Origin: Tubulanus polymorphus
Lineage: Eukaryota > Animalia > Nemertea
Reading direction: 5' to 3'
Assembly (NCBI RefSeq): GCF_964204645.1
Contig: NC_134026.1
Location: forward strand, 14,604,150 to 14,668,149
DNA length: 64,000 nt
Every line of letters starts with the position of its first letter. The stretch's first letter is position 1. The position numbers and the translations under genes were made by a program. Positions 20,523 through 60,081 of this stretch are shown here, piece by piece. The notes under the pieces are model-generated. The model had not been told where the DNA came from and did no database searches. It saw only the letters and a list, made by a program, of their open reading frames with translations.

Positions 20523-23230
20523 ATGGAAGCAAATAAGAAGTACTACTGTTCAACATGTAAAATCAATATAGATAAATCTCAAGAAGCAAGACATAATAAA
20601 ACTAAATCTCACTTAGAAAATAAATTAAAGTTAAAATATAAAGATGATATATTAGAAACTAAATTAGATGAATTAAAGAATGAAAAAGAAACATATAAAT
20701 ATTATACATGTAATAAATCATTCAGTGATAAAAGATATTATAAAGAACATTTGAAATCTAAAAGTCATATTAGAAATAAGAATAATGATATTTTAGGTGA
20801 GGATTATTTTGATAAAGATAATGATAAGAAACAGAAGACAATTAAAAGAATAAAAAATAAATTAAACAATAAAAGACCATACATGGAAGATGTAAGAAAT
20901 TATATTTTTCATTAGATAATAAAAAGGAAATAGAGATAACCGAAGCATTTAAAAGTGATATTGGTCCAGCAGCTATCGAGTTTAAATTTCATAAAGGAAA
21001 AACATTAGAAGAAAATAAAAAACATTTAAAAAATATGAAAAATATTATAAGAATAATTACTGATGTTGAATACCCTAAAATTAGCATATCTTCTAAAGTT
21101 AAGTTTATAAAATCTGAAGATAAACCAATATATAATATAAATTCCCATTCACAACATATTATTTCAAAACAACATATAGATGAAAAATTAGATAAATGTT
21201 ATAATAAAGTAAAGACTAAAATAGAAGAGAAATATTTTGAAGGATCAGGTTTAATATTCGATGAAATAATATGTATGACTTTACATGTTTATAACACAAA
21301 ATATAATAAGTTAACTAAATCAAAACCAATTGATGAAAATAATTCATCATATTATAAAGATGATAATATAAATGGGTCAAATTATATTATTAAACTACCA
21401 TTTAGTTGATGATGAATTAAGAATATTAAAGCAACACTATCCAAATAATGATGATTTTCAATTAATGAGATATAAAGGCGCAATTCCATATTCATTTTAT
21501 AAATCACATAATGATTTCAATATAACTGAATTATTAAAAGAACAATTTTATGGTGAATTAAAAAATGAATATGTTAAAGATGAAGTATATGATAGAACAT
21601 TGCATATTTGGAATCATTTTAAAATAATAAATCATGGACAATTAGTAGATTTATATTTAAAATCAGATGTATTATTATTATCGGATATATTTGAAAGGTT
21701 TAGAGATGTAAATCTAAAATATTTTAATATTGATCCTTGCCATTGTTATTCATAGCCAGGATTAACTTGGGATTGTGGTTTAAAATTTAAAGATATAAAA
21801 ATGGATTTGTTAACAAATATAGATCAATTATTATTATTTGAAAAATCTATAAGAGGAGGAGTTTCAGGTGTATTAGGCGATAGATATTTCAATGTAAATG
21901 ATAATCCTGGATATAAGTTATTATATATAGATGCAAATAATCTTTATGAATGGGCAATGATGGAACCACAACCTTATGGAGTATTTGAAATAAGTGAAGT
22001 TTTACAACATGAAAATAATGATAGATTTGATTGGAAGAAAAGAATTCTAGATATTGCAGATGATTCAGATACTGGTTACTTTTTTGTTGTAGACTTGGAA
22101 TACCCTGAACATATTAAATTTAAATCTAGAAATCTAGCATACTGTCCAGAACATAAAACTGTTACACATGAAGAATTATCAAATTATCAAAAAAGATTTA
22201 AACCTGAAAATCATATTCCTACAGAAAAATTAATGGTAACTCAGGAAGATAAATATAATTATGTAGTACATTATAGAATGTTGAAGTTTTATCTAAAACA
22301 AGAAATTATTCTAAAAAAGTACATAGATATATTTCATTTAGTCAATCTAAATGGTTAGAAAAATATATAGATTTTAACACCAAACAGAGAACTAAAGCTA
22401 AAACTGATTTCGAAAAAAATTTCAAACTAATGAATAATGCATTCTATGGTAAGACTTGTGAAAATATTAGAAATAGAAATGATATTGAGTTAGTTAGCAA
22501 TGGTAAAAGAATTAGACATTTACAAACATATCCTACGTTCATAGGTAACCGAATATTTGATGAAAATTTAGCTGCAGTTAAAATGAGGAGAACTTCTATG
22601 AAATTTAATAAACCCATTTATGTTGGTCCTTCAGTTTTAGAAATATCAAAGTTATTAATGTATGAATTCTATTATAATGTATTACAACCTCATTTTGGAG
22701 AAAAGCATATAGAAATCTTATATTTTGATACAGATTCTTACATATTTAAGATAAAAACTAATAACATAAAAGATGATTTAAAAACTTCAAAACATCATTT
22801 TGATTTCAGTAACTATCCAAAAGGTCATGAATTGTTTAGCAATGATAATAAAAAGGTGCCCGGTAAATTCAAAGATGAATTAGGTGGTGAAGAAATGATT
22901 GAATTCATTGGTATTAGATCTAAAATGTATAGTTATAAAACTAAAACTCATGAATCTAAAAAGTTGAAAGGAATTACCAAAAGTGTAGTAGAAAAGAATA
23001 TTCATTTCAAAGATTACATCAATTGTATATTCAATGAAGAAGTTAGAAAACATAAGATGAGATGTTTAAGATCTGAAGATCATGAAATGTTTATTGAAGA
23101 GATAGAGAAGATAAGTCTAAACCCATTTGATGATAAAATATATATTTTAGATGATGGTATACACACAGTTGCATATGGTTGTAATTTAGATGAATACTTA
23201 AGATTTAAAAGAGAAGAAACAAAAAAGTAG
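20523..23230 (+). pseudogene. Protein-primed family B DNA polymerase with N-terminal C2H2 zinc fingers; frameshifted, exonuclease region deleted
   Basis: LYLKSDVLLLSDIFERFR, SIRGGVS, YIDANNLY..AM, KLMNNAFYGKT.EN, YFDTDS, PGKFKDE, RSKMYS, KGI. Confidence 0.93.
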
Positions 23231-23320
23231 GAAATAATGAACAGGATTATAACGTGTTAATCAAATTTTAATAAAAATATGTATTATAAATGGAGAGTAA
23301 ACAAGCACACAGTGACTCCA

Positions 23321-23430
23321 TGTCTTTATTATCTTTAGTACTTTTAGTACATAAAGAATAAATCTTTATATTATAAGTAGTGAATACAATTATTTTTAAA
23401 ACTACTAAACTACTAAAGATAATAAAGACA
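23321..23430. repeat. Inverted repeat (20-bp perfect arms) downstream of pPolB
   Basis: TGTCTTTATTATCTTTAGTA (23321-23340) and TACTAAAGATAATAAAGACA (23411-23430). Confidence 0.9.
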
Positions 23431-23574
23431 CAGATTTATCATTGCTGAAACAGTAATATATAATAAATCTGTGAGATAAACAAATATTACTGAATAAAAT
23501 ATATATAATAAATCTGTGGAATAAGAAAAATAATATTATTGAAAAAGTAATATATAAAATCTATCAGATGAATA

Positions 23575-23739
23575 GAATATGAAAGATTAAATGGAAATAC
23601 ATATAAATTCAGAACATATTTACCAGATTGATTTCATAGATTATCAAGTGAAGATTTAGAAGAATTATGTTCTGGAGATTTCTATTTCATATACAAAGGT
23701 AAGAATGAAAAAGGGCACCATGAAATAGATTTCGAATAA
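23575..23739 (+). pseudogene. Remnant homolog of the 108-aa MGDRK protein
   Basis: Reads FRTYLPD*FHRLSSEDLEEL...FIYKGKNEKGHHEIDFE*, matching LKVFLPDKWASLSTKELKDL..IIYHGKNEDGHHDLEIVD. Confidence 0.7.
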
Positions 23740-23753
23740 AATATGTAAAATAA

Positions 23754-24516
23754 ATGGTAGAATTAAAAGAATATAGAATATTTGTTGATTCTAGAAGACT
23801 TACAAATTATAAATCACATAATTTACTAGTACAATTAGATAGGGAATTTAAGAATTGTGTTGATTTAAAATTAGTTAATATAAGTTTATGTAATTCTTTT
23901 TACAATATATCGAATAAAACTATTGAACATAGAGCCTTTTTAATTGTTAATAAAAATAAAAATGAATGGGCCTATATATATTTAAAACCGGGGTTATATA
24001 ATTTAGATACATTTGCACAAGAAATTAATAGAAAAGCCTGGCACAAGTCAGGTAATCATACCGGGTTTAATATTAGATTTTTAAAAAGTGAGAGTTCTAA
24101 CAAAATAAAGATAAGGTTGGCTGATATTGAAAAACATAAATTTATGGTAAAGAAACCTATAGCTAAACTGTTAGGAATTCCTCCAGATAAATCTTTTATT
24201 ATTAAATATTGAAGCTACACCAAACTTAATACCTTTTACACACTTTTATATTTATTGCAATTTAATCGATCCTACAAAAACATTCGAAGCAACTAAAGGT
24301 ATAACTTGTAATTCTAGTATATTAAATATTTTACCATTGAAGAATGTTAAAGAATTTGGAACGCAAATAAATTATAATTTAACAGAATGTGATTTCAAAC
24401 CATGCATTCCTCAATTTAATAATTTTAGATTAGAAATTAGAAATCATAATGGATATTTAATTGATTTGAATAACTTTCCTGTGATATATGAATTAGTTAT
24501 AAGATGTAGAGAGTAA
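23754..24516 (+). pseudogene. Putative minor capsid protein (penton, single jelly roll); one frameshift near 24210
   Basis: N-term IFVDSR..HNLLVQLD..LVNISLCNSFYNI, LKPGLYN; shifted C-term FYIYCNLID..ILNILP..FRLEIRNHNGYLIDLNNFPVIYELVI, a typical penton pattern. Confidence 0.65.
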
Positions 24517-24533
24517 TTTTTTTCACTATATAA

Positions 24534-24875
24534 ATGAATATAACTGTTGGACCGAGCATATGTTTTGGGTTTGATTTTAAACATGGTAAAGAAATGAGCA
24601 TTAAACTTAATGATGTAATTATTGATATTAAACGTAAATCATTTAACAATGCATCAATGATTAATAAAGAAAATTATAATATAGAAAAAGTAATTGATTT
24701 AATTAAAACACCTTTAGAATATTATGAATTAAATGAAGGTGGAATTATTGATGATATTAGAGATATATTATCTAGAATATATGATAATCATAAAAGTAGT
24801 AATGAAATAAATGTTGAAATAATTATCACTAAGATAACTAAATATTTTGAAGATAGTAATTTTTTTGATAAATAA
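24534..24875 (+). CDS. Maverick hypothetical protein (113 aa)
   Basis: Intact ORF preceded by T7-CACTATA-TAAATG. Confidence 0.6.
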   Translation: MNITVGPSICFGFDFKHGKEMSIKLNDVIIDIKRKSFNNASMINKENYNIEKVIDLIKTPLEYYELNEGGIIDDIRDILSRIYDNHKSSNEINVEIIITKITKYFEDSNFFDK

Positions 24876-25076
24876 ATGAGTGATAATAAGTGGATAATAA
24901 CTGGATTATATAATGGCGCCATACTATCAATTGGAACTGTTGGTTATTCAATGGTATTAATAAAAGTATTTAAAATGGGAAGTGTTAATGTTGATAGATT
25001 TGATATAAATGATATTTTAAAATTAACATTAGCAGTTACTTTATCTAATTTAACTATTGATTATTTGGAAAAATAA
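24876..25076 (+). CDS. Small hydrophobic Maverick protein (probably slightly truncated)
   Basis: Starts at the TAA|ATG junction; hydrophobic segments GAILSIGTVGYSMVLI and ILKLTLAVTLS. Confidence 0.55.
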   Translation: MSDNKWIITGLYNGAILSIGTVGYSMVLIKVFKMGSVNVDRFDINDILKLTLAVTLSNLTIDYLEK

Positions 25077-25124
25077 AAAATATATTCCTCCTATATAAGA
25101 AGTGCATATTTTTTTACTAAATAA

Positions 25125-25480
25125 ATGGCTTCTGCAATTATAACTATTATAGGATCGGCAATTGTTAACGCTTTAGCATTAACTGGTGGTGGTTATTTAT
25201 TTAAGCATATTGATAAAAATGGATCAGTATCAGAACAAAAAAGACATAACTTAGCATTAGAGAAATGCAATAAAGCTGCAGAAGAATATAGAGAAAAGAG
25301 ACAAAATTACATGGATTATATTTACAAGGAATTATATGATCAGAAGATTTCACAAAGAAAAATTAAATCTATAAAAAACTAAATTATTATACCCCAAGTA
25401 AAGAACAACAGAAATATGAAATAATTTGGATTTTAGGTGGAACTGTTATTGTTATATTTGTAGCGTATAAATTTACTAAT
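25125..25480 (+). pseudogene. Maverick membrane protein (MASA...VNALALTGGGYLF...EQKRHNLALEK) with C-terminal TM in a shifted frame
   Basis: ORF 25125-25382 plus downstream IIWILGGTVIVIFVAYKF; the same tail appears at 41888-41925 in copy C. Confidence 0.6.
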
Positions 25481-25503
25481 TAATAATTTTTTTTGCTAAA
25501 TAA

Positions 25504-25923
25504 ATGGATGATAAAGTTGATAATATTGATATTATTCCTCTCGATATAAATAAATCTAAATTAAAAACATATTTAGAAAAACAAATATTAGAATTTGAAA
25601 GTGACTTAAAGATAAAAAAGAAAAAATATTTAAAAAGTAAAATTATATATTATTTTATTATCAGTGGTTCAGTTACAATTAGTTCTGTAATAACACTTCT
25701 AGCAATATTCAGTCCATTAACACCTTTAGCTATATCACTTGGTGTGCTAGGATTATCATCAAGTGTTTTAACTGGTATAAGTTCAAAATTAAATATAAAA
25801 TGTAATAAAGAAAAAATTAAAACTAATATAAAAGAAATTAATAAATTAAAAAATACACTAGATTATATAATAAGTTTAAATGGTAATATTACAGTTGAAG
25901 AACAAGATAAATTATTAAAATGA
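25504..25923 (+). CDS. Two-TM coiled-coil Maverick protein (139 aa)
   Basis: Two hydrophobic helices between Lys-rich coiled coils; near-identical to 41947-42372. Confidence 0.75.
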   Translation: MDDKVDNIDIIPLDINKSKLKTYLEKQILEFESDLKIKKKKYLKSKIIYYFIISGSVTISSVITLLAIFSPLTPLAISLGVLGLSSSVLTGISSKLNIKCNKEKIKTNIKEINKLKNTLDYIISLNGNITVEEQDKLLK

Positions 25924-26724
25924 TTAATAAATTATTAATTTTTTAATTATATATATGGTAGATCGTTTTCCAAAAGCTTTCCAATCTAATAAATCAATTA
26001 AATATAATATTCCTGCAATAGATTTTAATAAAGATATTTCATATAGAAATGAAGTTTTAAATTCAATATTTACGTAATTAATTTCAAAAATTTAAATTCG
26101 GCAAAACAATGGTTATTAAAATCTAATATGAAGTATTGGCAGAACCAATTAAATTTTGCAGTTTATTGCGCAACAACAGGGTGTGGTATAAGTTGGAATG
26201 ATCATTTAAATAAACCAAGTTTACCATTGATGTTATCACTTTTTAGATTCCATACATATTTTCAAACAAAATTAATATTAGATGAATTTGAATGTCCTTT
26301 ACCAGGTTCAAAATATTTTAATGAACTAAATAATAATATTGATTTTTCTAAGTTTTGTAAAATATGTAACGAATTTAATATTAATTCAAATAATGATTTT
26401 AGATCAAAAATTGGAACAATGGGGTGATTAGGAATATTATATACTAAAGAATTTGGAAAAATAATGACAAATACAGATATAAGAACACTAAATTGGAATG
26501 AATTACCAAAATATTATAATAATATACAACAACAAAACAATAATGGTTGGATTAATTTTATTTTAGAAAATAGTGAAGGTTTTACTAAAGCTGGAATACA
26601 AAGAATAAATCAATCTATTAGAACTTATTTGATATGTATTTTAGGTGCGCAAGTTGAAACAAGATCACCAATAGTTGGAAATGATAACACTTCATTTGAT
26701 ACACAGAAACAATTCAAAGTATTA

Positions 26725-29128
26725 GACACCGTCAGGAAGACCGTCAGACACCGTCACGAACTCACGGGTTATACTAAACACCGTCAGGAAATAAAAAACA
26801 ATGATTGTGAATTCTAAAAATGAATATTTTATATTAAAATCAACACTAAATGAGCCCTACTGTGCAAATTGAATTTGGAAATATTTTTTTTTATATAACA
26901 CGAGTTTTCCTTGGTAAACTCAACAATACGCTGTGCAAATTGAGCAAATTTTGTGAAATAAATCTTTTCGTAATATATCGTAGTTTTTAGTTTCTTAGTT
27001 TGAGTTAAACTTTTTTCCGATTTTGTTTCTAAATCTAACAATCACTTTATTTTGCCAAATTGTTATTACCGGTACTTCGAAATGACAACAAAGTGATTAA
27101 TAAATTGCAAACTGGGTCTGTTCCATGTTCCCTAACCCCTAATAGACACGCCTGATGCACAACGCACTAATGAACTATGCTTTTATTTCGAGCTATAAGA
27201 CCCCCTACTTAATTATTGGAGTTTTTAGATACACTACATATCATATTGCCACGGGTCACTAATCCTATTCACAATTAGCACATAAAAACCAACAAATGAT
27301 TCTTCAGCACGTCATATTTTATTATCTCTCTATCACGACGGGTGATTCCAATTTTATTGTGGTGAGATTCTTGATAGAACGAAGTTGTGAGGAATAAAAG
27401 GATAACCATGAGTGACAAAAAAAAACCAAAGGCACCCGCCGTATTTACGCCAAGTAATGTTGCCAAGAAGCGAAAGAAAATTTCGAAAAAATATCCATGT
27501 AAAGGTAGGAACAATTGTTTTTCATTTGTGCTATCAAAATCGCAGTAAATTACGACTGAAATATCTATATTGGAACAAATCTTTGAATGCTAGCAAGTCA
27601 AAACTGAATTTAGTCATGTATACAATTTTTTTACCATTTAAGTATAAATATAAGTGTTCTAGTTATCAAAGATTTTTTAGTCATCTGCGAACCAAAATAG
27701 ATGGTAGCTTCGATACAGAAATAGGGACGAAAGAACATGTATTCGGGTCAGATGAAGAAAAAGCTATTCTCAAGGCAATCAAGCAATCGACACCTAGAAC
27801 AAAATGTAAAACGACATTTACGCCACAAAGTCGGTGCAAATGATAAAATTTCAAAAGAAATTGTATCTTGTATATTCGGAAACTCCGGGTTATTACAAAA
27901 AAGTGACGAATACGAATACGATCACTGCGTCCTCGAGTTGGAATCGAAATTTGAAACAATTGTGCCACTGTTCATGCCTTATTTCAAGAAGTTCGTCATA
28001 CGTCTCAAACAATATGTTTTCGTTCCTACGCAGATAGAGAAACGTGTTCATTTAAACTGGACTAATAATAATTGCGAAAGTATGAACAATCTCATAAAAC
28101 TATCGACGAATTGGAAAATTTTGAAAATTCCTGATCTCATTGAGCGCCTGAATAGTATAGTAGATCTGCAGTATGCAGATATTCGCCGAGCCTTACACGG
28201 TCAAGGAAACTACCAAGTTTCGCCTCGTTTGAGCAAACACGTCGTTTCGCACGTAGTATGGTGTAAAAAATCGAAGGAAGAAAAGGATGCGATCATGAAT
28301 ACATTTTCAGTGCAAAATCAAAAACAAAATCGATCGAAAAAGTTATCAAGTCCAGTGACGGAAAATTGAATATCCCGAAAACCGCAAAAGTAGCGAAGAA
28401 ACCAGGGCAATTAAAGCGTCCAAGGACGACGAGATCAATTACAATAAAAAAAACATAACTTGACACATACATTCTTATTGTCATGTCAATTTTCATGGAT
28501 ATTTGTATCAACTAGTACATTTAAATTTAATTTTCTAGTTAATTTTTCATTTGTTTATTTTGTATGAAATCTCATATTTGTATCAATTTATTCATCAATT
28601 TATCAATTATTCTAAAATAAGATCGATTACTTTGCCTTGATTTCAATGTACATTACAGTTGGAAAAAATTGAATAAATTGCGTTTCCTATTCATGTAAAT
28701 ATCAATTTTGCCAGTCATTTACCTTGTATAAATTTTTCAAAGTTTCTTTTTTTCATTAGATTATTTTGCCTTTTAAAAGTTGAATAAATGGGCCGGAATA
28801 AATTGTTTACCAGGGATTGCGTTTCCTATTCATGTAAATATCAATTTTGTCAGTCATTTACCCTGTGTAGTGTATTTGTTTATTGTTATTTTCAATTTTG
28901 CCTTTATTTTAATTTCGGCGTACTCTTAATGTATAAGCTTGAGTTGATTTCTCAAATTGTGAATAAACAACATGTTAGTATTTTCAAGAGTCGTTTCAAA
29001 TTTGCTTTCCTTTTCTGCCTTCAAGATTCGCTCTTCATGACGGTGTCTGACGGCTCCTGGCGGTGTCTGACAGTTTCTGGCGGTTCCTGACGGTGTCTGA
29101 CGGCTCCTGACGGTGTTTAGTATGACCG
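26725..29128 (+). mobile_element. Mutator (MULE) transposon remnant
   Basis: Transposase fragments FGSDEEKAILKAIKQ, HLEQNVKRHL, NWTNNNCESMNNLIK (27.7-28.45 kb); inverted ends GGTTATACTAAACACCGTCAGG (26767) and CCTGACGGTGTTTAGTATGACCG (29128) with ACCGTCAG subrepeats; no TSD because of an adjacent deletion. Confidence 0.8.
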
Positions 29129-29426
29129 AAATTATTTAGATAAATCACATATTAGATTAAATTATTGTATAGGCCCTAATATATTAATAATTTCTAATGA
29201 TTTAGTATTAAAGATGGGAAATATAATTGGTTATAATAATCTAATTAAGACTGCAACAATAAATAATTCATTTGGATTGAATGATATAAATAAAAAGATT
29301 ATCACTGCTCCAAAATTAATGGAAGGTGAAAAAAATAAAAAACATATTCAATCAACAGAAACTAAAACTAAGAATATTAAATCAAATAATGATTCTAAAA
29401 TAAAAGATTACAATTCTACAGAAAAT

Positions 29427-29451
29427 GGTGCCGTACGGCACCCACACGGTG
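29427..29451 (+). mobile_element. Double-hairpin micro-element, copy 1 (in-frame in a gene)
   Basis: GGTGCCGTACGGCACCCACACGGTG flanked by AT/AT; absent at the orthologous site in copy C (~43657). Confidence 0.75.
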
Positions 29452-29597
29452 ATATAAAAACTGATATTATTCAACATGAAATAATTAAACTAAATGATGA
29501 TAATAAATCCCATGAAAATGCTAAATTAGCTATAACTTGTATAGGAATTGTAATCAGAGAAATATTATATTTTAAATTTTAATTTTTTATTATATAA

Positions 29598-31256
29598 ATG
29601 GAAGAAGATATTCCAATGGATACTTTTGGTGACGCCCCCGGTATAAGTGATGAACCACAACCTGATTTTAATGAAACTAATATTGATAATGATGATGGAT
29701 CAGAATATAATTCTAATTTAAATAATGATGAAGATGATGATTATGATTATGATGGAATTAATGCCGAAGTACGTGAAAAATTAAATAAATATTTAGAAGC
29801 TTCTGAAAGTGGTAGAATTACAACTAGAACAGAAAGAAAAGAATTAATGAATCTATTAGAAAAACAACAAGAAAAATATCCTGATAAACCCATGGAATTA
29901 TATAGAATGAAATCTAGAGTAACAGATACAATTGTTAACGAATTATTACCAAAAGAAGTAATATATGAAATTGATTCAGAAGGTGTTGTAATGCAAATTT
30001 TAGAAGATGACCCATTTTTCATGAATAATTTAGAATTCAAAAATGATTCATGGTATTATAATCTTGAATTAAATAGGAATACTGTAACAATTCAATTATC
30101 TAAAATGGGACAAGAAAATATGTATGAACCTGGAATGCGAGCATTATCTACAATTAAGGTTCAAAAGGCGGTAGAGAATTTCTCAGAATTATATGGAATG
30201 CACTCGATAGAATAAATGAACCAATTCCTAATATTGATATTAACAAATATTCACCGTTTAAAAATCCAAATCCAAATCCTACCGATGTTGATCCAGAAAT
30301 GGAAGAGTATGGAGATCGATTAGATAGATTAAGATCTTCAACACCCGAAACATCGAGAAGAGATATTCAACAAATTGATAATGATTCAAGTCAATTACAA
30401 TTAGTAAAACATTTTGATAGCATGTTAGATACAGTTCATTCATTTGAAGAAGAGATGAATAGTGTTTTAATAAATCGAATACAATCTTTACTAGAAAAAG
30501 GATTATTTGATTTAACTGATGATGAATTAGAAGCATTTCCTGAACAAGCACGTAGAGAAATTAAAGCTATGCAAGAATCAGCTGATAAAATTGCGCATGA
30601 TAAAAGTATAAGAGATATTAAAATTATAACTTTAGAAAAAGATAGAACTGATAAAATTAAAGAAATAGAACAACTAAAATTAGATAGAGATAATAAAGTT
30701 ATTGAAGAAATTGAATTTAAAAAAAGAAATGCATATTTAGAAAAAGAAATAGATGATTTAGAATATAACATAGAATTTCAGAAAGAAGAAATTAAATTAT
30801 TATTAAAATCATATGATTATAATATTAATAGATTAAAAGTTATTTTTAAAGATTTGTTGATAAAACCAAATTCTGAAATATCATTAAAAGATAGAATAAG
30901 ATTATCATTTAAATTAGAAGGTATAACAATTCTTTCAATTCTAACAGCTGTAACTTTGGTATTTACAACAATTGGTTTAGCTATATCAAATTCATTAAAA
31001 TCCACTCCTAAACCGGATAAACCCCCGAATGATAATAATTCTATACAAGATAAAGTTAAGGATGGTTTAAACAAATTAGCAAAATATTTATGAGAACTAT
31101 CTAAAAAATCTGCTGCAGCTTTACCCGATTGTTGGTTTTATATTGAAATCTGCAGGAAAAAAAATTAACTTTGCTGCTGAACATATTATTTTATTTCTAA
31201 TTACAGTTGTAAGTGCAATTATTTTTGGGTTAGTGAATATGATAAAAAATAGATAA
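29598..31256 (+). pseudogene. Large acidic/coiled-coil protein with C-terminal TM segments
   Basis: ORFs 29598-30215 and 30299-31093 plus tail; C-terminal half matches 44330-45050 (EGITILSILTAVT..., DKVKDGL..LAKYL). Confidence 0.75.
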
Positions 31257-31275
31257 TTAATTTTTTGTTAAATAA

Positions 31276-32290
31276 ATGAGTGGGAGTTACATAGATCCTT
31301 CTAAGAATCATAGAATATCTAATGCTATTAAAGCAGAAAGATCTCATCATATAATTACTCATAATCCTTCTAATATTAATCCCGATGAAACTTTATATGT
31401 TTGAAGCCATAGATTAACACAAAATACTTTTTATGTTCCAAATAGTATTTATTTATCAGCTGATATAAAAGTAACTGGTAATGATAATAATTATGTTGTT
31501 GATAATGTTGGAAGATATTTGATTAAAAAATGAACTATAAAGATTGGTCCAGAAACAGTTTTCTCATTAGGTGATTATAATTTATTTATGCATTATAAAG
31601 ATTTATGGTTAACTAAAGAAAATAGAAATAATATGATATTTCAAGGCATCCAATCAGAAAACCAAAATAAATTAAGATCTGAAGCCAATAATGCAGTAGT
31701 AGCCAATGACGTAGATAATTTGATAACAAGGATATATGGAAGCAAATATAAAATTCCATTAGACTTTGAATTGATAAATAATAATTCACCTTTATATAAA
31801 TATGCAATTCAAGAAGATGTTATATTTGAGATAACATTTGCTCCTGTAAATGAAATTTTTATATCAAGTATAATTAAAGATATGGGTTATAAATTATCGA
31901 ATATATGTTTAGAATATGATACAGTAACTGATGAAAATATTGCTAACACAATTCAAACTCAATACAATCAAGGATTTTCATTATTATTTGATTATACTGA
32001 TAAATTTAAAACTGTAACTATTAATGCACATGATGAAATTATTAATGAGAATATTAACTTCCCAAGAAGATCTATTAAAGGTATATTAATATTTTTTACT
32101 ATTGCAGCATATTCTAATGGCGCAATAAAGGTTGATAATTATTATAATCCTGAAATAACAAAAGTAGAAATAACTATCGAAGGAATAGCAAATAAAATAT
32201 TTTGTCAAGGAATGAGAATGATAGATCAGTGGCCAGAAATTAGAAAATATTTTATGAATGAAAAAGTAAAATCATCTGCAAATTGTAATA
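31276..32290 (+). pseudogene. Major capsid protein of Maverick A, 5' part (nonsense mutations, split by Academ)
   Basis: Colinear with the intact 415-aa ORF 45090-46337 up to ...SANCN; continues at 58826. Confidence 0.85.
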
Positions 32291-34113: not shown

Positions 34114-34125
34114 ATATTCAATTAA

Positions 34126-48085: not shown

Positions 48086-48103
48086 AATTTTTTTGTTATA
48101 TAA

Positions 48104-49040: not shown

Positions 49041-49067
49041 ATTGAATATCTCACTACTTTTGTCTAT

Positions 49068-49094: not shown

Positions 49095-49178
49095 ATCTAT
49101 GCGGAGCAATTAAATTGTCCAGATAAGTCATTTCGGATTCTAGATATTCATTATTTTTATTAATTTATTTTTTAAAAT

Positions 49179-49505
49179 TTAATCAACAATTTCTAAATCA
49201 TGATGGCCATCTTCATTTTTTCCATGATAGATTATTTTAAATCCTTCTAAATCTTTTAATTCCTTTGTACTCAATGAAGCCCATTTATCAGGTAAAAATA
49301 CTTTTAATTCTCGCGATGTACTAACATTACAGCAGCTTAAATTAGCTGATACTTTCTCTCCATATTTAGTTTTTATCTTTTCTAATTTCAATATTTTATG
49401 TTCAATTTCTTTTGTAACATCAACTAACTTTTTTATTTCAAATTGTTTTTTTGATGGTTTTATTCTGTTATTTATTGTTGCTAAGAATGCTTTTCTATCT
49501 CCCAT
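49179..49505 (-). CDS. 108-aa TIR-proximal protein, possibly an OB-fold ssDNA-binding protein
   Basis: Intact; KKL.DV...HKI..LEKIKTKYG.KV.A.L...KVFLP pattern; function is inference only. Confidence 0.6.
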   Translation of the reverse strand: MGDRKAFLATINNRIKPSKKQFEIKKLVDVTKEIEHKILKLEKIKTKYGEKVSANLSCCNVSTSRELKVFLPDKWASLSTKELKDLEGFKIIYHGKNEDGHHDLEIVD

Positions 49506-49845
49506 TTATTAGGAAAAGAAATTACTTGTGGTGATGAGTGGGGATTACTTCCCCTTGTATATAACAAACACGCTATTAACCGTTCTCACCCAAGCCTCAC
49601 AGCATCTATTTATCCGGGTACAGTTGACACGCAATCACTGTACTACTACAGTAATAGCACACGCGTTAATAACCGTTCTCAGTAGAGACTCACTGTATCG
49701 ATCTATCCACGCGCAGATGTTGTTACGCGCACTCACTGTATATGTGTATCACAGAGCAATCGTCCGTTCTCACTAGAGCCTAGCTGTGATGAGTGGTGTC
49801 TAGTACTCTAGTACTCTGGTACGAAAACGCCATCTTCTAATTACT

Positions 49846-52337
49846 ATCATCTACGGTTAAATGTTCTGGGCAATAAGGTAAGTTTCTTGTTTTAAACTTT
49901 ATATTTTCAGGATATTCTAAATCAACTACAAAGAAATACTCCTCTTTTAATTGATCATAAAATTGATCTTTTAATAATTCTGTTACATTAAAATCATTGT
50001 GTGTTTTATAAAATGAATAAGGAATTGCGCCTTTATATCTCAATAATTTAAAATCTTGGTCATTTGGATAATAATATCGAGTTATTATAAAATCATTATC
50101 AACTAAAATTTTTGATAAATTATCTAATGAACTTGCTAGAAATCTATAAGAATCTAAAAATCTAATGCAACCAAATTGAAATGAAATATAATTTTCAGAT
50201 GTTTTAGCTAATAGATTAAAATCATATTTTCTTACATTTACACCATTCATAGCATTATATTCTTCTATTTCTTGATTAATTGTGCCCAATTTCCTTGATA
50301 ATTGTTTTATAAATAGATGGGTATCATAGCCTGATAAATTATGAAATAATATTGGTACGAAATTAACTTTCTTAGCTTGTAAATTACAATCTTCATGAGC
50401 AGCTCCACGATATTTTGAATTTAAATGATCATGATCTCTAACTTTTTTATCAAATGAATAAAAACGTTTTTCACAATAACAACAATGAGTTGGATAATTA
50501 AAATCAATTTCATCTTCTTTTGTCATAACTATTCTTTTATTTTTGTTTAATAATTTTGCAAAATCACTTTCTAATTCAATCATTTTGTCACAAAAATCAT
50601 TAACTACATTTTCACCTCTAAAAGAAATATACTGACTTTCATATAATTCAGGATAATTTGATTTTATACAAATTCCATAAGCAGCAGCTCTTTGATGATC
50701 TTCTTTAATTGTATTTATAATTGGCGGGTCTAGTGTTGTGTCTTCATTTAATTCATTTCCTTTATCCATTGATTTCAATAATTGCTTTTTGTTATATATC
50801 TTTTTTCTATCTTGATCAGTTAATTCTTTATTCAACGATTCAAAATCCCCATAAATTACAAATGGAACAATATTTTTAAATTTATGATTAGTAAATTTCA
50901 ATTTATAATCTTTTTCTGTTGGCATTATTAATTTGCAAAAATCTTTATTATCACATAATTCTTTATGTTTTAGTAACGCATTCTCAGTTTTAAATTTAGA
51001 TAAACATTTTCTACGTAGATAAATTTTATTACTGTTAAAATCACTTTCTGTTCTAAAGAATAAATCAATTTGTTTTAACCACATATAATGTTCATTTTCA
51101 TCTTTTTTGTAATATAACAAATCTATAGCATTTTCAACATCATAATATTCCGTTAAATATAAAGCTTCCAATGTATAATCTTTAATATTTTCACCTTTTG
51201 TCTTTGGTAATTGCATCAATTCGAATACATTTATTTTTAAATTATTAATTTTTTCTATTTTGGGTATCATTTTTATAGTGACTGGATATTGATCAATTTT
51301 ATATAATGTTTCATATTTCCGGTAAATTTTTTATTCTAAAACTATGCGTTATATCTTCTGTTGGATGTAAGCAACTAATAATTGACCATAGAAAACATTT
51401 ATTATCTTCATTTTGAACATTTATTACTGCTTTTGTTGTAAATGGTAATTTAATATAAGATGATGCTTTAATATCCTTTTCTGTTGTAAAGTTTGAATCA
51501 TTTTTAAACATTGTTTTACTTTTTGATGTTTTATTCCTTTTTGTATTATAAACATTTAAATCTAAAAATGTAATTTCATTTAATGATAAACCAGAACCCT
51601 CAAAATATCTTTCTTCAATATGACGTTTAAATTCATTAAATACTTTTTCTAACTTCTCTTTTATTTGCGTTTTTGAAATTATTTCTTCAGAGAGTGTGTG
51701 AATATTATAATCCATTTTCTCTTCTGACTATAAAAAAACTTACTTTCCCAGAGATACTAATTTTTGGATATTCAACATCTGTTATCAAATCTAGTATTTC
51801 TTCTATTATTTCATTAAATTTATTATAATCTTCTATTGTTGTACCTTTAAAAAATCTAAATATAATAGCTGCAGGACCAATTTTACTACGTAATGTTTCT
51901 AATATTTCAATTGTATCTGTTATTTCTAGTGAATCAATATAATTTCTAACATTTTTCATGTAAGGCTTATTTGAAATGGATTTAGTTTTTGAAGTTGGTT
52001 TTTTTACTTTTTGAGGTTTATCATCGAAATAATCTTTTCCTAAAACATTACTACTCAAATTTTGATGGTGTTTTTGTAATTCGAGATGTCTATTATAATT
52101 CCTTTTTACTATAAATTCATTACAAACTTTACATTTTATTTCATCCACATTCATATTTTCTAATCGTTCTTTTCTTTCATTGGAATTTTCTGAAGTTTCA
52201 AAATCTATAACATTTTTTGTGTGATTTGAAGATTTTTCATGACGCGATTTTTGAGATTTATCAATGTACTTTTTACAATATGGACAATAATATTGATTTT
52301 CATTAACATCAATTTGTTCTGTCTTATTCTCTCCCAT
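49846..52337 (-). pseudogene. pPolB of Maverick B, 5' part (C2H2 fingers, EndoVII-like HNH insert, exonuclease), interrupted by copy C
   Basis: INVQNEDNKCFLWSI, PFVIYGDFES, C.YC...VRDHDHL..KYRGAAHEDCNL, PILFHNLSGYDTH, RFLDSYRFLASSLDNL. Confidence 0.92.
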
Positions 52338-52674
52338 TTATAAGGAAAAAAAATTACTTGTGGTGATGAGTGGGGATTACTTCCCCTTGTATATAACAAG
52401 CACACAATTAACCGTTCTCACCCAAGCCTCACAGCATCTATTTATCCGGGCACAGTTGACACGCAATCACTGTACTACAGTAATAGCACACGCGTTAATA
52501 ACCGTTCTCAGTAGCGACTCACTGTATCTATCTATCCACGCGCAGTTGTTGTTACGCGCACTCACTGTATATGTGTATCACAGAGCAATCGTCTGTTCTC
52601 ACTAGAGCCTAACTGTGATGAGTGGTGTCTCGACCTCTCGACCTCTGGTATGAAAACGCCATCTTCTAATTACT

Positions 52675-55600
52675 TATATTAGCCCGAGCACAAGAACAGT
52701 TTTTTGTGCACATGCTTACAGTACATTTACAGACTTTGCGAGACGTTGTCACTGGTTTTGCCGTCTTTGTCATTAACACCGGTGCCATCGTGCCAGTATC
52801 GGTAACTTTCCAACCAAAGAGTGTCGGATTTGGGATGATAGGTTGATATTCTACTGATTCCCTGTAAAGCAGTAGCTGATAAAGTGATCGCAACGTGTGT
52901 TGCCTGATTGAATCTTCGGTTGGCGGTAAACAACGTAGATCTGACGATTTCGAAGCAAAAAGATGCTGACGTAAAGTATCTAATGATTTAAAATGTTCTG
53001 TAGATTTACCATACAACGACACAAAGATAGAAACAGCTTCGGCGAAAATCTCATCAGTTGGGCTATGGTCTTTATTTGCCATGTAGTGAACCAGGTGTGG
53101 CAATTTACCAATAAGTTTTATAGCTACACTTGCTGATCGACACTTCTCCTTTCGAAACGGGTAACTGACACTGTCACATCCTGTCAAAACGTACGTGCTA
53201 AGTAACGTAACCATTGCATTATGGGGACATAATGGTGCGGGATCGATTTCATTCATACAGAGATGGTTGACATACTCATGGATGGGGAGGAAAGTATTAG
53301 CTAACGGCTTTTCAACCCACAGCTCACCAATGTCCAATTTGGTCTTGTTGTACAGGGCCAGCATTATTATATCGGTATCCGTGGCTCTTATTACTGCTCG
53401 ATTGACTTTCAGCTTCTCAGTCGAATACCGGAGATGAGCAAAAATCCTGGTATCTGCCTCTTCGTGGCCCTTGCATTGGAAAACTATTGGCTCTTCGACG
53501 CTGTGTTTTGTTGCGGCCCAGGTTGTATCACTAGCTGTACATCCTCCGATATATAATACTATCCCATCAGGGATTACATCGTGACTTCTGATTATGTATT
53601 CTGCGATGTAGTCCAGCAAGTTAGCTTTATTTCTATCCACACTCAAGAACACTTTCCAGTCTCGTATCTTTAGGTTGTCTCGCACACAGTATTCTTTACA
53701 AGTTTTTCCTTTCTTTCTTCTGTCTCTCTCTGCTTCTTTCAAACTTCTCTCTCCAAAATCATATCGGTCGCCTACTAGATGTATTTGCTTGCAGTCTTTT
53801 GGCATGATTACGAACAATTTTCTCATCAATGATTCGGCCATACTTTTAAAATTTTTCGTACTGGTGGATAAGTGCCATGGCATCAATTATATACGTGGCT
53901 GCTTGGTTGTTACCGGTTTCTTCGTAAAGTCACTTTTATTGCCTTTTCTCATTTGTATACCATTCTCATTTTTTTCAAAGAGTGATGATGGGAAGTCTGT
54001 CCACTCATGTGTTAATGCTGTGCTACTTTCCTCTTCGGACATGAAGCATAATGCACGTGTGACGAGACTTTCATCCTGGTATATGTTGACTAGTTTTTTC
54101 TCCTTGCTCACCTTAGACACTTTATTTGAGTTGGAGAATGTCATAAGTGCAGGAGTCTTGATGGCCATGAGGTTTTGTTTTTAGCGGACTTGAGAGAAGA
54201 TATACCAATGTCTCGCGCATTTGCCAAATCGGAGGATAACAGAACCTCTCCAGAACTGATGTTGATGATGTTGCTTTGGTCTGTAGTCTGAAATGGGTTG
54301 ATGAATTGGGATTTGAAGGAAGAAATTATCTTTTTGACAGCATTGTTATCTTTTCCAGTCTGCTTTTTTGTGTCGGCATGATGTTTTGTAGATATGTTGG
54401 TGTTAATTTTGACCATTGACTTGAGACAATTCGATACCTTTGCCAGGAATGGGACAGACTGGACATATTTCTCTTGGGTAACTGGTTTGTTGTTAAGCCT
54501 TTGAACAGGTGATTCTTTCCATGGCGGTTGATTGACTATTCCAGACCCAGGTCTGTCCAAACTCCATTACATTTGTTTGTGGTGTGATTGACTGTGAAAT
54601 TTCCATTGATAAATTGTCGGTAAATTTCAGGGAATTATATTGGAAGTTTTCTCATATCGTCAATACAATGTGATAATGCTGGTGCATAGTTGGTATATCC
54701 CGCAGCGATAGTGTATGGGATCATTCTCTCGACTTCCGTGAGATGTGCTACCCAGTCCCCTGAACGCTCAGCCTTGATGTATCGCAATATAATGTGTACC
54801 ATATCCATGTACATTAACCAGAATTTTGCTGTCATGTTTGCTTCAATTAGATTTTTCAAATGATCTGTCCATCTTTCGTTCAGCACCTCGATTTCTGATC
54901 TAAGTTCACAAAACATACGTTTGAAATTTAAGATATCTTCATTTTCACAACAATTCTTCTGAAGCAATTCTATACGTTTCATATGGATATTTTCGCCTGT
55001 TGCTCCGACAAATGACTGCCAAAGCATGTTTTCTAATGACTCAACTATATTCAAATGGTACTTTAAGGTTGAATAGTAATCTTTGCCGGACACTACTTTG
55101 TCTGTTGTTCCACTTTTACATAGGTCATTTTCTAAAAGGATGGCTTCAAAGCCGCTTTGCTTCATTAATGTACCAATACTGGCCATGAAATTTGTTGCAA
55201 TGTGGAATCCACCAAGTCTGAAAATGAAATTTTCATACTTTTTCTCGTTTTTATGAACTATGCCTTTTAGAATGTCATAAATCTTCTGATCTGCAGTTAC
55301 GACTGTATCCTGTTGGCCCAGGTTCACAGTGACGTCTACCAAGTAATCAAGTGACTTGTGTACAACAGCATGCGATGTTGGCGAATGTGGGAACATCGGA
55401 CCATATGCTACAGTTGTTGGCCTGTTCAATTCGGGATGCAGGCAGTCCAAGAATTATGACCAACTTAGCAATGCGGTTTCTTTATCATAATCACGTGAAG
55501 CTGAACGGATTAGTGACCATAGGAAGCTCTCATCTGTAATGAGGCTGGTGCCATGTAGACTGCCTTCTCCCATTGAAGCAGTGTCGACTACGATATCTAT

Positions 55601-56812
55601 CATAGATCGTGCCTTGCGACTATCGTTCAAACTGGCATTGCTTTCAGGTACAGAAAAACGACATGGTTGTCCTTCTCTTCTTCTTTACCGGCACAGTACA
55701 ACTTTCCTCGGTATCATTTCCATATTGGTAAAACACATGTGTTGTCCCATGGAATGTGGAACCATCGCTTGTTTTATCATTAAAGTCATGGTTATCAAAA
55801 GCTGTCTGGAGAAATTGGCCTTTCTTCAACTCACTAGGAACAAAATGTCCATCAACACTATGTTCTCCAATACTTTGTACCTCGGCTGTAATAATACGTT
55901 AACCCGAATCATAACTGATAGCATGACCAAGCTTATTGAGTAATTCTATTGTTTCCTTGCTTCTTGTGGTTTTCAAAACATACAATGTTAATGCAGAATT
56001 TGTTGGCATCGCTAGGCATGTAGCCTGTGCCATCATATCCTGAGCTGTCGACAAAACTTGCAATTCTTCACTTTCCGATAAACACTCTCCAGCATCTTTA
56101 TCTGACAAAATTCAAGCCAAATGGTTGTACAGTTCAACTGGGACTCGCTTTCTTGCTTCATCAAGACTTATTTCCATTGTATTCACATCTGTTTGTTTGA
56201 AGGTAGTTGCATGTTTTTTTCATTAATGATCGGATGTGCTTTGCCAATGTGAATGCATCACAGTTGAAATTCAATTGACGTGGGTATTTCACTTTTTCAG
56301 CTGGTTCTATTTCAGGTGCATCTTGCAATTTCATCAATTGAGTGCACAGGTCACTCACAGTTATGGATCCCGAACATATGATGGTCATGCGTTTATACTG
56401 CGCTGGTATCGCTTGAATAGAATCTCCATACCTATTAGATAGTTTTTTTTAGAAGACGTGCTGACCGAATACTTGGACTTTCATTAAGAGAATTTCATTT
56501 AGAGAGATAAAATCACAGAGCTTGGTAAATGCCGCATCGGGTAATTTTGGTGAACTTGCCCGTTTATTTAAATAATTATCCATACAGAGAGGATGGTAAT
56601 GGTATCCTTCTCGATTTTTTGGACTCCCAATATGACTTACTAGTTTACTGATCATATGCTCATCACCCAACTCCTTGGCTTTTTCATACAATCTGGTTTG
56701 TCTTGTCTGTGCATAATCAAACATATACATTTTCCGATCTTTCTTATATCTCTCTTTCTCGCAAAGTAGACACATATTCATTTTTGTTGGTTTTGGTATT
56801 TCCATACTTTTC
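52675..56812 (-). pseudogene. Academ transposase/XPG-like nuclease/Cys8 polyprotein, many frameshifts
   Basis: LNKLGHAISYD, AFDN.DF, TFHGT, VVTADQKIY, RLGGFH, AERSGDWVAHL, GYTNYA, GHEEADTRIFAH, ATDTDI, LTGCDSVS, LPPT, FGW, CKC..C..NCSC; splice acceptor TTTTGCAG at 56820-56813. Confidence 0.85.
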
Positions 56813-56896
56813 CTGCAAAATATAAATTGTAAATAAAATTACACATGTATATTTATTATACACAACTGACTGTATATATATACTGAAATATAAACG

Positions 56897-57418
56897 AATT
56901 TGGTTCCCTTTGGCCTAGATATTTAAGTGCCGAAATATCAATGAAAATTTGGGCATAGGTTCCCCTCTCGGCTAGATATTTAAGCGCTGAAATATCAATG
57001 AAAATTTGGGCATAGGTTCACATCTTGGCTAGACATTTAAGCGCTGAAATATCAATGAAAATTTGGGCATAGGTTCCCCTCTGGGCTAGACATTTAAGCG
57101 CTGAAATGTCAATGAAAATTTGGGCATAGGTTCCCCTTTGGGCTAGACATTTAAGAGCTGACTTATAAATGAAAATTTGGGCATAGGTTCCCCTTTGGGC
57201 TAGACAGACATTTAAGCACTGAAATATTTAGATGAAAATTTGGGTAGGACTATAGGTTCCCCTCTGGGCTAGACAGACATTTAAGAGCTGAATTATAAAT
57301 GAAAATCTGGGCATAGGTTCCCCTTTGGGCTAAACATTTAAGCACTGAAATATTTAGATGAAAATTTGGGTATAGGAAGCATTAAAATATGAATGAAACC
57401 CAATCAGGCATAGGTTCG
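56897..57418. repeat. ~58-bp minisatellite (about 8-9 units) inside the Academ element
   Basis: GAAAATTTGGGCATAGGTTCCCCT(T/C)TGGGCTAGACATTTAAGCGCTGAAATATCAAT repeated. Confidence 0.92.
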
Positions 57419-58825
57419 CCAAAAAAGTTTGTGACTTATACATGTACATCATATCGGCCTAACCATTTGAAATGGACATTAATGCGGACAATTCTTTTTC
57501 TTTTGAAAAACAAAGCCTATATTTTTTCAGCTTATCAGGTTCACCCAGTCCTGGCAGTGGTTGCCTCCAAAGAGATCTCCGTCGCCCTACGATCCTAGTG
57601 TAACCAACAACCCAGACACATTCACTCAAATTCGCTGTACATCAGATACTAAGGTTCTTGGTGAAATCATAGGCCCATAGGTATTATAATCCATTCCATG
57701 ATTAATTTTGTAGTTCATCGAAAAAGAGAAGAAGTGATATTTACTTACCAAATTATGTTTGAAGTTTCATTTTAGACAATTTCCATCAAATATATGCTAT
57801 GAATTTAAAGGGTTGGCTTTGCGTGTCCGGCAATCAGAGCATACTTTACTATCAACAGCAGATAACTTGAATCGATGCATAAATCCTCTGTCAGTTTCAA
57901 CAAATTTGACAACAATTAAAGATGTTATGTGTACAATGTTACCCAGTAACAGAAATAACAGATGGTAGGTGATGATGAAATGAATGTCCCATTTCAATTC
58001 TGAAACACTATAAGAGTGCATTTCATTTCTTACAGCAGTTACAGTTATTTATTTCTAAAAACACTAAAAATCATGACTAAAAGAAGTAGCATTTTTTATT
58101 ATAGAATATTCAGTACCAGGATTGTGCGATAACAAAGGACATAAATATAACTAAATGCATATAATATGATTTGATTTTAGACACATTGAACTATAATCTA
58201 TTAAAATGTGGCTTTTTGATTTTCCATTCTATAAAAATGTTCGTACTATTATAAACCAACAATGGTCGTATTTTTCGTGATGTGCTACATTCACGCTTCT
58301 CCAACTTTAAAACGTCACTGTGTTCAAAGTGTTTAAGATAATCATCAAGGAATGATATAAATGTGAAGCATATAATTCCGCAATAATGATTAATGTCTAA
58401 AATTACGATTTAGAATTTTTGGAAGCGAGCTTTAATACAAAATCCATGAGGTGGTGCCTCGAAAAAAACGTAAAATTTTCTCAAATTGGATGAAACTTTT
58501 TGATTTTGTCGCAGACTTGTACGTAATTTCGTGATATGAATATATGAAATGAAAGCCCTGATAAATCTAAATAAAATGAATAAAGAATTACTTCCATACC
58601 TATTTCCAAAACTCTTTGTTTTATTCGCAGATTAGTAAATGATGCAATTTTAGTTCCCTCGGCTGACTATAGGGGGCGTTAAACCATTTTCGCACCACCT
58701 GTTACCATGGAAACGACCATCACCAGAACCGTACATGACCCCCTATCACAAAATAACAATATCCCGAGCAGAGCAAATGTGTCAATGAGAATCTAAAAAT
58801 TCCTCTGTCTGCTCCTCTACTAATA

Positions 58826-59056
58826 TTAATCAAATTGATTATTACCGGAAATAAATATGCATTATGGTTAGATTTTAGAACAACAGAGGATAACTTATTA
58901 CATGGTTCTGGAAAAAAATTACAGAACACTAAAGATGGAATACAATTATTCATGAAAAAGAAAAAAGTAAGCTTAAATTTTAAAATGCACATTTATATTA
59001 TATCTGACGCGCAATTAAATATCATAAATTCCCAATTGAATAGTGTTATGTATTAG
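58826..59056 (+). pseudogene. 3' part of the Maverick A major capsid gene
   Basis: TGNKYALWLDFRTTEDNLLHGSGKKLQN...LNSVMY*. Confidence 0.9.
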
Positions 59057-59088
59057 AATTTAGATTTTAATAAAACTTTTTATAATAA

Positions 59089-60081
59089 ATGGAAGGAGGA
59101 ATATATGAAATACAAAGTTCAAGTGAAATGATACCAGATATATATTATATAATACCTTATGATGAATATAGTAAGTATTTTGGAGAACTCTTTAATCAAT
59201 TCAAATATAGAATAAGTAAAATAGATAAAAATATTGAAACAAAAATAGAAGATAATATTGAATCTAAAATAGATAATAATATTGAACCTAAAATAGAAGA
59301 TAATATTGAACCTACATCGAATGATGATAACATTGAACCTGATATCAAAACCAAAAAGACAAATGAAATATATTGTGACGTATGTAAACAGTATAAAAGT
59401 AATAAGAATTGGGCAACTCATCTTAATTCACTCAAGCATAAGAAAAATAGGAATAAGACTATAAATGAATTTAATAACGATAGTGAAATTGATAATTATA
59501 ATGTTAAAGAAGATAAATATTGTGAAGAATGTGATAAATATATAAGTCGTAGTAATTTTTCAAAGCATAAATTAACTCAAATACATTTGGATAATGTAGA
59601 AAGAAATATATGTGAAAAGTGTAATGTTGTTGTATTACCTAAAGATAAAATTAAACATGATAATTCTATTGAACATACAATAAAAGCTATTGATTCAAAA
59701 CGCCTTTATAGAGTACCAACTGTATTTTTTGATATCGAAAATAATACTCATAGGAAATTATATAGATCAATTTTTATCGATTATGTAAGAAATAATCCAA
59801 AACAAGTATTATTAGATCTAAAAACTCGTCGGACAGATATAAAAACATTTCCAAGTGATTATTCAGGTATACATTATTTCATAAAATTTAAAAATACAGA
59901 TTTGTTAACAGAATTGAAAAAAGTTGCTGCTAATGATAATTATGATAATAAAAGTGATAACGTTGATGAAATAATTCAATATTACAGTTATGCAGATTTT
60001 TCACAGGATGTTATAAATGAAATAAGAAATGATGCAGAAAATAAATATGAAAATATAAGTGAAGACAAATTAAACCAATAA
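59089..60081 (+). CDS. Maverick A C2H2 zinc-finger protein with KIEDNIE repeats (330 aa; may have extended to ~60237)
   Basis: YCDVCK..WATHLNSLKH, YCEECD..FSKHKLTQIH, ICEKCN..KHDNSIEH; TAAATG start; same composition as the other viral genes. Confidence 0.75.
   Translation: MEGGIYEIQSSSEMIPDIYYIIPYDEYSKYFGELFNQFKYRISKIDKNIETKIEDNIESKIDNNIEPKIEDNIEPTSNDDNIEPDIKTKKTNEIYCDVCKQYKSNKNWATHLNSLKHKKNRNKTINEFNNDSEIDNYNVKEDKYCEECDKYISRSNFSKHKLTQIHLDNVERNICEKCNVVVLPKDKIKHDNSIEHTIKAIDSKRLYRVPTVFFDIENNTHRKLYRSIFIDYVRNNPKQVLLDLKTRRTDIKTFPSDYSGIHYFIKFKNTDLLTELKKVAANDNYDNKSDNVDEIIQYYSYADFSQDVINEIRNDAENKYENISEDKLNQ

Follow-up and report, generated by a model that had tools for sequence, protein, structure and literature searches.

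By what machinery are the genes of animal Mavericks expressed? The question is raised by a 64,000-nt stretch of the genome of the nemertean Tubulanus polymorphus (assembly GCF_964204645.1, contig NC_134026.1, positions 14,604,150 to 14,668,149; hereafter the window, with coordinates counted from its first nucleotide), which holds three integrated, now broken copies (A, B/E, and C) from a Maverick/Polinton lineage in which genes begin, almost without exception, at the hexamer TAAATG. A first-pass annotation of the window had read these starts as poxvirus-type late promoters. Here we examine the starts in the window and in related loci, and find a site that has the shape of a poxvirus post-replicative promoter, occurs far beyond chance, and is restricted to one lineage, which is likely a satellite virus that a poxvirus-type helper would transcribe in the cytoplasm with its post-replicative RNA polymerase.

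TAAATG at gene starts in the window

We fixed 26 gene starts in the window by homology, either to relatives, whose proteins were mapped onto the window by tblastn, or to the other copy. TAAATG was present at 23 of these 26 starts. All 21 ATGs for which the first-pass annotation had claimed this context are indeed preceded by TAA on the gene strand, and the start at 48643 and an uncertain one at 23591 extend that list. The remaining starts are 20523, which reads TAAAATG, 25955, which lacks TAA, and 48104, which has TAA and a decayed start codon. Because the three copies are related, the gene family is a fair counting unit, and all 15 families had at least one copy with TAAATG. Of the 935 remaining ATGs that the elements contain, 55 (5.9%) lie in the hexamer, a background at which our arithmetic gives a chance of about 4e-19 for 15 out of 15. 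Outside the elements it was found at 1 of 17 open reading frames (ORFs) of at least 100 aa, in line with the claim that retroelement and transposase ORFs start without it, and the elements proved as AT-rich relative to their surroundings as had been proposed (24% GC versus 36% in the remaining window). At two starts, 24876 and 35922, the TAA doubles as the stop codon of the preceding gene.

Sequence upstream of the hexamer falls into two forms. Thirteen of 15 starts checked had a run of 6–8 T and a 5–7-nt spacer ahead of TAAATG (the others being 49505, with 4 T, and 59089, with 5 T and a 4-nt spacer), so that this late-promoter form accounts for 13 of the 23 TAAATG starts in the window, and most of the others are of an A-run type. 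The T-run form is exemplified by the site of the major capsid protein (MCP) gene (45060..45092, + strand; T7, GTTAAA, TAAATG, with the ATG at 45090) and recurs at the ATGs 24534, 24876, 25125, 25504, 29598, 31276, 35041, 41947, 42389, and 43803. The A-run form, intermediate-type in poxvirus terms, is found at the packaging ATPase (47180..47209, + strand) and at the ATGs 35922, 37050, 46368, 34503, 48643, 23754, and 59089; the integrase, the ATPase, the genes at 23754, 34503/48643, and 59089, and the polymerase at 20523 have an A-run at −19 to −14 without a long T-run. The earlier claim that most structural and membrane genes carry a T-run and spacer is refined by this A-run group. Very short ORFs at 23290 and 23591 also start at TAAATG with A-rich sequence upstream, and are probably decayed small genes of element A.

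The motif follows the capsid tree

The window MCP had 926 homologues at E ≤1e-5, and a metagenome scan yielded 170 confirmed loci, the best 80 of which were analyzed by scoring the starts of ORFs of at least 100 aa. These loci were grouped after their identity and motif had been seen, and the groups were then checked on trees. TAAATG was found at 55/65 starts in 16 loci of a close clade and at 7/7 starts in four loci of a second small group, compared with 0/42 starts in six loci of a sister group and 4/290 starts in 54 loci of distant relatives. Base composition does not reproduce this pattern: distant relatives below 40% GC (13 loci) had TAAATG at 1/43 starts, first ATGs after a stop in shuffled relatives had it in 500 of 8334 cases (6.0%), and two relatives at 40–44% GC retained it (L007 at 2/3 and L008 at 3/4 starts). 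After removal of near-duplicate loci, 60 of 68 starts carried TAAATG against a dinucleotide-shuffle mean of 11.0 and maximum of 17, bearing out the predicted enrichment over an AT-matched background.

The TAAATG trait follows the capsid tree. The window MCP grouped with the close loci both in a quick tree of 89 rows (98 SH-aLRT) and in a careful tree (100/98) of 28 chosen rows, from which near-duplicates and most of the distant rows were left out; the careful tree is compatible with a single TAAATG clade (p-AU 0.26). The first-pass annotation had considered that the same motif at canonical Mavericks would speak against its proposal, and the other Mavericks of the same family lack it. Scans of IMG/VR with the MCP, an MCP alignment, the integrase, and an alignment of the VLTF3-like gene described below recovered no relative, and a scan of genome contigs recovered three distant loci, which the motif counts exclude. 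In two protein clusters (P0045 and P0244), relatives of the MCP and the integrase with 55% identity are labelled as coming from Bartonella, where they lie on short contigs, and we infer that they are probably animal DNA in those assemblies. One distant relative (L021:9967-13596) has a helicase-type replication gene (AAA_30) in place of the protein-primed family B DNA polymerase (pPolB).

Resemblance to poxvirus promoters

Across 63 distinct starts, T is most frequent at −12 to −14 relative to the ATG (0.84, 0.76, and 0.71), which places it 9–11 nt ahead of TAAAT, and A peaks at −16 to −18. Vaccinia late promoters have TAAAT(G) across the start codon with a conserved T ten nucleotides upstream and a 5–7-bp spacer, and its intermediate promoters have TAAA without that T and an A/T-rich stretch 15–19 nt upstream (PMC11980589, PMC5294985). 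Late genes of entomopoxviruses likewise start at TAAATG (PMC3061580). The two forms are distributed by gene: the A-run form is found at ATPase, integrase, and zinc-finger genes and the T-run form at capsid and membrane genes, and enzyme-like and virion/membrane genes differ in promoter type (20 versus 41 starts, p 7e-4, with the groups defined post hoc). The vaccinia A32 gene, which encodes its packaging ATPase, is an intermediate gene (PMC11980589). The late-promoter reading of the first-pass annotation is partly supported: it agrees with the enrichment, the vaccinia-like spacing, the retention of the motif in relatives of 40–44% GC, the clade restriction, the head-to-head geometry, and the failure to find an RNA polymerase gene, and needs amending in that part of the genes look intermediate-type.

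Two further properties of the starts bear on how they may be used. Position −3 is T in 56/65 starts of the clade, and a purine in 34/42 sister and 210/290 distant starts. Since Kozak contexts prefer a purine at −3, this T breaks the Kozak rule, and would fit a start behind a poly(A) leader. In poxviruses, such leaders arise from TAAAT (PMC7163114). Among 69 TAAATG starts, the TAA served as the stop of an upstream gene in one, and 22 were classed as head-to-head, 16 of which (in 8 loci) lie 14–30 nt apart. Divergent ATGs at this distance leave no space for two RNA polymerase II (Pol II) leaders, and fit transcription initiation at the ATG itself.

The poxvirus early-terminator signal TTTTTNT was also considered, being depleted in clade genes (observed/expected ratio 0.39), and was rejected because all long T and A runs are depleted too, including in non-element ORFs; T-runs near stop codons were excluded as evidence, as they overlap the promoter of the next gene. 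Counts of splice donors gave no useful contrast.

A sister clade with a different initiator

In the sister clade, a second arrangement was observed in loci L016 and L020 (and in L017, which duplicates L016, so that the pattern represents two independent loci), consisting of a T-tract, 10–12 nt, TATA, and 1–16 nt to the ATG. The full bipartite site was present at 10/26 starts against 0.2 in shuffled sequence, and TATA within 22 nt of the ATG at 19/26 against 3.3. This arrangement resembles the late initiator of African swine fever virus (ASFV), which is TATA, with late leaders of a median of 9 nt (PMC7458399, PMC7163114). The same three loci encode a short VLTF3-like protein (L016:6543-7052, L020:5082-5579, and L017:4427-4933; PF04947, E 6e-4 and 4e-5), which scores just below the curated cut-off of that family and has three homologues above it; no other locus had this gene, including the window and the TAAATG loci. 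VLTF3 has previously been reported in some polintons (PMC11131425). The sister-clade initiator suggests a Maverick family that changes helpers.

Gene content and architecture of the nested elements

The MCP gene (45090..46337, + strand) is an intact ORF of 415 aa with a predicted double jelly roll; its structural model (pLDDT 88.6) matched the MCPs of PBCV-1 and iridoviruses in Foldseek (E 3e-16), with the Mavirus MCP ranking below those of nucleocytoplasmic large DNA viruses. An intact integrase ORF (35923..37050, − strand, 375 aa) combines an rve domain (PF00665, E 1.3e-10) with a weakly matching chromodomain (PF00385), and is adjoined by an A32-like packaging ATPase (35338..35922, − strand; PF04665, E 3.9e-12) with a broken 3′ end. 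The pPolB of B/E (49837..52337, − strand), which carries zinc fingers at its N terminus as well as a region resembling endonuclease VII, is frameshifted and truncated, and that of A (20523..23230, + strand) is in several pieces. The window pPolB aligned by tblastn with the pPolB of L023 (E 1e-116), a protein that matches PF03175. A conserved core gene (42389..43786, + strand) is an intact ORF of 465 aa in a cluster of 32 ORFs, for which a fold search found no match (best Z 4.2, confined to a single helix). The product of the gene at 23754 is a candidate minor capsid protein, with a weak match to DUF5901 and no match of its family alignment in PDB or Pfam, and an ESM Atlas search with the product of 24534 gave no usable match. 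Domain and profile searches of window and clade ORFs matched no RNA polymerase, TBP, TFIIB, or VLTF3, in agreement with the earlier claim that the elements encode no RNA polymerase, and no ORF lacking an assigned function is longer than about 485 aa. No Adenain-like cysteine protease, a gene typical of Maverick/Polinton group 1, was matched by Pfam in the window or its relatives, where copies and contigs are partial. The closest relative, L001, additionally encodes a deoxynucleoside kinase (10340-10981; PF01712, E 2e-31) with a T-run TAAATG start.

That the window holds three Mavericks, as first proposed, was confirmed by self-comparison and inspection of the junctions, from which the nesting was worked out. 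The left part of Maverick A (20292..32290, + strand) comprises a terminal hairpin, the broken pPolB, accessory and membrane genes, and a broken 5′ portion of the MCP gene. The hairpin, an imperfect 152-bp structure at 20292-20443, starts with AGT, lies 80 bp ahead of pPolB, and has a single copy in the window. The right part of A (58823..60237, + strand) has the 3′ end of the MCP gene and a zinc-finger gene from 59089 (TAAATG, A-run type); integrase, ATPase, and right end were not seen in it. Maverick B/E (33321..52674, − strand) is bounded by terminal inverted repeats of about 345 bp with AG...CT ends, and its middle is lost or interrupted. It is flanked on both sides by the 6-bp target duplication TATATT, this repeat and duplication evidence being for B/E alone. 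The right part of Maverick C (41888..49845, + strand) was inserted into the B/E pPolB in opposite orientation, and it terminates in the repeat that also bounds B/E. These repeats (33321-33665, 52330-52674, and 49498-49845) stop a few bases beyond TAAATG: the left one of B/E (33321..33665, + strand) has T8, a 5-nt spacer, and TAAATG at its inner end, and the right one (52330..52674, − strand) contains the T-run TAAATG start of pPolB. As the repeat includes TAAATG, both end genes use one promoter and start codon (ATGs 33658, 52337, and 49505).

The MCP gene of A is split by a DNA transposon (32291..58822) with inverted repeats of about 540 bp and ORFs without TAAATG, which later took in Mavericks B/E and C and Penelope-like copies; its TAG...CTA ends resemble those of Academ elements. 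The retroelement copies (37258..41887, − strand), which lie between B and C and also lack TAAATG, are Penelope-like, with reverse transcriptase and GIY-YIG domains detected by domain search. A small DNA transposon (26726..29116) with a TTAG duplication sits within a core gene of A, and tandem arrays with periods of 57 nt and 31 nt occupy 56849-57393 and 61250-61975. Element ORFs run colinear with those of relatives, which are uninterrupted, and introns are therefore not required, as the first-pass annotation had held. In 1.9 Gb of reads under the same species label, element C was covered (41800-49100 only) at a depth of roughly 100–950 by sequences mostly 90–99% alike, which, without a single-copy control, shows only a multi-copy, diverged family.

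Comparison with known systems

The elements share pPolB, an rve integrase with chromodomain, an A32-like ATPase, and a double jelly-roll MCP with Mavericks/Polintons (Polintoviricetes, including "adintoviruses"), as well as, in B/E, terminal inverted repeats that end in AG...CT and a target duplication of 6 bp. They probably belong to Maverick/Polinton group 2 as described in 10.64898/2026.06.19.733378, in which gene content is variable. Unlike other Mavericks, the window clade has TAAATG starts with T at −3, and no cysteine protease was detected in its partial copies. Neither PMC8502044 nor PMC11131425 nor 10.64898/2026.06.19.733378 uses the word "promoter" in its main text.

With promoters of vaccinia and entomopoxviruses, the sites share TAAAT over the ATG, a T-rich core about 10 nt upstream, and a 5–7-nt spacer, and with vaccinia intermediate promoters the second, A-rich type, packaging ATPase included. 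The difference is that the promoter-like sites described here sit on a small element in which no RNA polymerase gene was found, and that no signal of the early type was established among them. Mavirus, Sputnik, and Gezel-14T carry the promoter motif of their helpers (10.1101/2022.07.28.501842), and Mavirus encodes pPolB and an rve integrase (PMC11296320). Like the elements of the window, these are small double jelly-roll viruses with a helper-type promoter motif; however, they live with helpers of the Mimiviridae type in protists, whereas here an animal-type Maverick carries a pox-type motif of a hypothetical helper. A helper-type promoter motif together with no RNA polymerase of its own, a trait of the virophage lifestyle, was found in these elements.

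Polinton-like viruses (PLVs) occur in occlusion bodies of entomopoxviruses (PMC11296320). Three of them, AHEV_PLV1 and AHEV_PLV2 together with CBEV_PLV1, are likewise of Polinton type and were proposed as poxvirus hyperparasites, but they are described as having no detectable rve integrase, or a tyrosine recombinase (PMC11296320). The lineage is characterized there by this lack, or by a tyrosine recombinase with a primase-helicase, and AHEV_PLV1 by protease, lipase, and L2-mu genes; the main text of that report contains no promoter analysis. The rve integrase found here sets the window elements apart from this lineage in gene content.

Which polymerase transcribes the elements?

As the motif is common to close relatives and missing in distant Mavericks, the lineage is likely to rely on transcription machinery borrowed from a poxvirus-like helper. 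We favor, with somewhat more confidence than doubt, the view that an integrating Maverick lineage, equipped with integrase, pPolB, ATPase, and capsid genes, inserted with a 6-bp duplication, and marked by a motif of vaccinia-like spacing restricted to a capsid clade, is transcribed by a poxvirus-type helper. Dependence on a large cytoplasmic DNA virus of whatever kind appears quite probable.

Several observations weigh against a poxvirus-type helper. Such a helper in this host is hypothetical and deduced from promoter sequences; the elements yielded no poxvirus gene, and the deoxynucleoside kinase of L001 has no named viral neighbor, none of its three close homologues being named. Promoter type is not fixed by gene: in L001 and L002 the integrase is T-type, and L007 and L012 have an A-type MCP. 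Pol II signals offered no contrast, AATAAA showing no depletion within genes (observed/expected ratio 1.00 in the clade and 0.92 in distant relatives), and several small genes without an assigned function could encode a promoter-recognition factor. The tree requires two changes for the TAAATG loci, the second group branching apart. The read depth of about 100–950 implies a copy number so high that a purely nuclear transposon would account for it equally well. Finally, the TATA sites of the sister clade are the best ground for a helper other than a poxvirus.

Such a helper would be a large DNA virus of the cytoplasm, not a poxvirus proper, whose initiator resembles TAAAT (one of the Pokkesviricetes, for example an asfar-like or egovirus-like virus); we regard this alternative as unlikely. 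It gains from the ASFV-like T-tract and TATA site of the sister clade (10/26 versus 0.2 shuffled), from the many clade starts that read TATAAATG, and from the fact that promoters have been described for few such viruses, with the egovirus preprint (10.1101/2024.03.23.586382) not using the word "promoter" in its text. Yet it is TAAATG and not TATA that is invariant in the clade: TATA occurred in the last 20 nt at 26/64 starts versus 22.1 shuffled, and in a second count at 29/68 versus 19.7 (maximum 26). Moreover, chordo- and entomopoxviruses are documented users of TAAATG at the start codon (PMC11980589, PMC3061580), and in the literature we consulted we found it for no other group.

A rather improbable explanation is convergence on the poxvirus form by a nuclear promoter or translation signal specific to the element, which host Pol II would read with the help of a factor encoded by the element. 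The high copy number in the host would be expected of a nuclear element, and several ORFs without assigned function, zinc-finger proteins among them, could supply the factor. Against this, window and clade ORFs matched neither TBP, TFIIB, nor VLTF3; the motif, with its T at −3, adjoins the ATG, and divergent ATGs lie 14–30 nt apart; and those relatives in the family that lack the motif retain a purine at −3. Less probable again is that the promoters were inherited from a helper-dependent ancestor and are now unused, the family spreading in the host nucleus by read-through. All three window copies are broken, and the nested insertions mark the locus as a transposon sink. The motif is nonetheless found at every gene family across a clade with 50–75% capsid identity, 20–44% GC, and rearranged genes, and its retention across so diverged a clade needs continuing selection in a replicating lineage. 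The 76% AT of the elements and the two window starts directly after an upstream stop might suggest that TAAATG arises incidentally, from AT richness or because a compact genome couples stop and start in translation, but this is refuted by the controls (background 5.9–6.0%, AT-rich distant relatives 1/43, upstream stop 1/69, head-to-head 22/69).

Under the favored poxvirus-type helper, element DNA in an infected cell would lie in or near the viral factory, where both the T-run (late-type) and the A-run (intermediate-type) promoters would be transcribed. Initiation inside the AAA of TAAAT, with slippage, would give a poly(A) leader immediately 5′ of the ATG, and such a leader would make T at −3 harmless for translation. 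The genome would then be copied from its terminal repeats by pPolB and packaged by the ATPase and MCP. Through the integrase, copies would enter the chromosomes of the host, the germ line included; in the absence of the helper, the copies are predicted to be silent.

Implications for animal Mavericks

Mimicry of helper promoters is already known; we found no report of pox-type promoters in Mavericks within the reach of our search, beyond which most subscription papers lie. Virions of animal Mavericks are described as never having been observed (10.64898/2026.06.19.733378). The motif bears on how these elements are expressed and on their nature, be it that of autonomous viruses, nuclear transposons, or satellites, and a six-letter initiator with a T-tract matching poxvirus promoters makes the question of expression cheaply testable.

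If the poxvirus-type reading is true, viruses of this type are predicted in hosts with no record of them, and virophage-style parasitism, known from protists, would reach integrated elements of animals. A bolder extension, which we offer tentatively and think rather doubtful, is that a widespread clade of animal Mavericks comprises endogenous poxvirus-type satellites with a borrowed intermediate-to-late cascade, that neighboring clades switched helpers, one to asfarvirus-type TATA initiators with a VLTF3-like factor, and that germ-line copies act, like Mavirus, as an inducible and heritable defense against poxviruses. The different initiator of the sister clade suggests that helpers could be assigned throughout the family by promoter type; on the bolder reading, this type would identify the helper and expose unseen pox-like viruses in the hosts that carry these elements.

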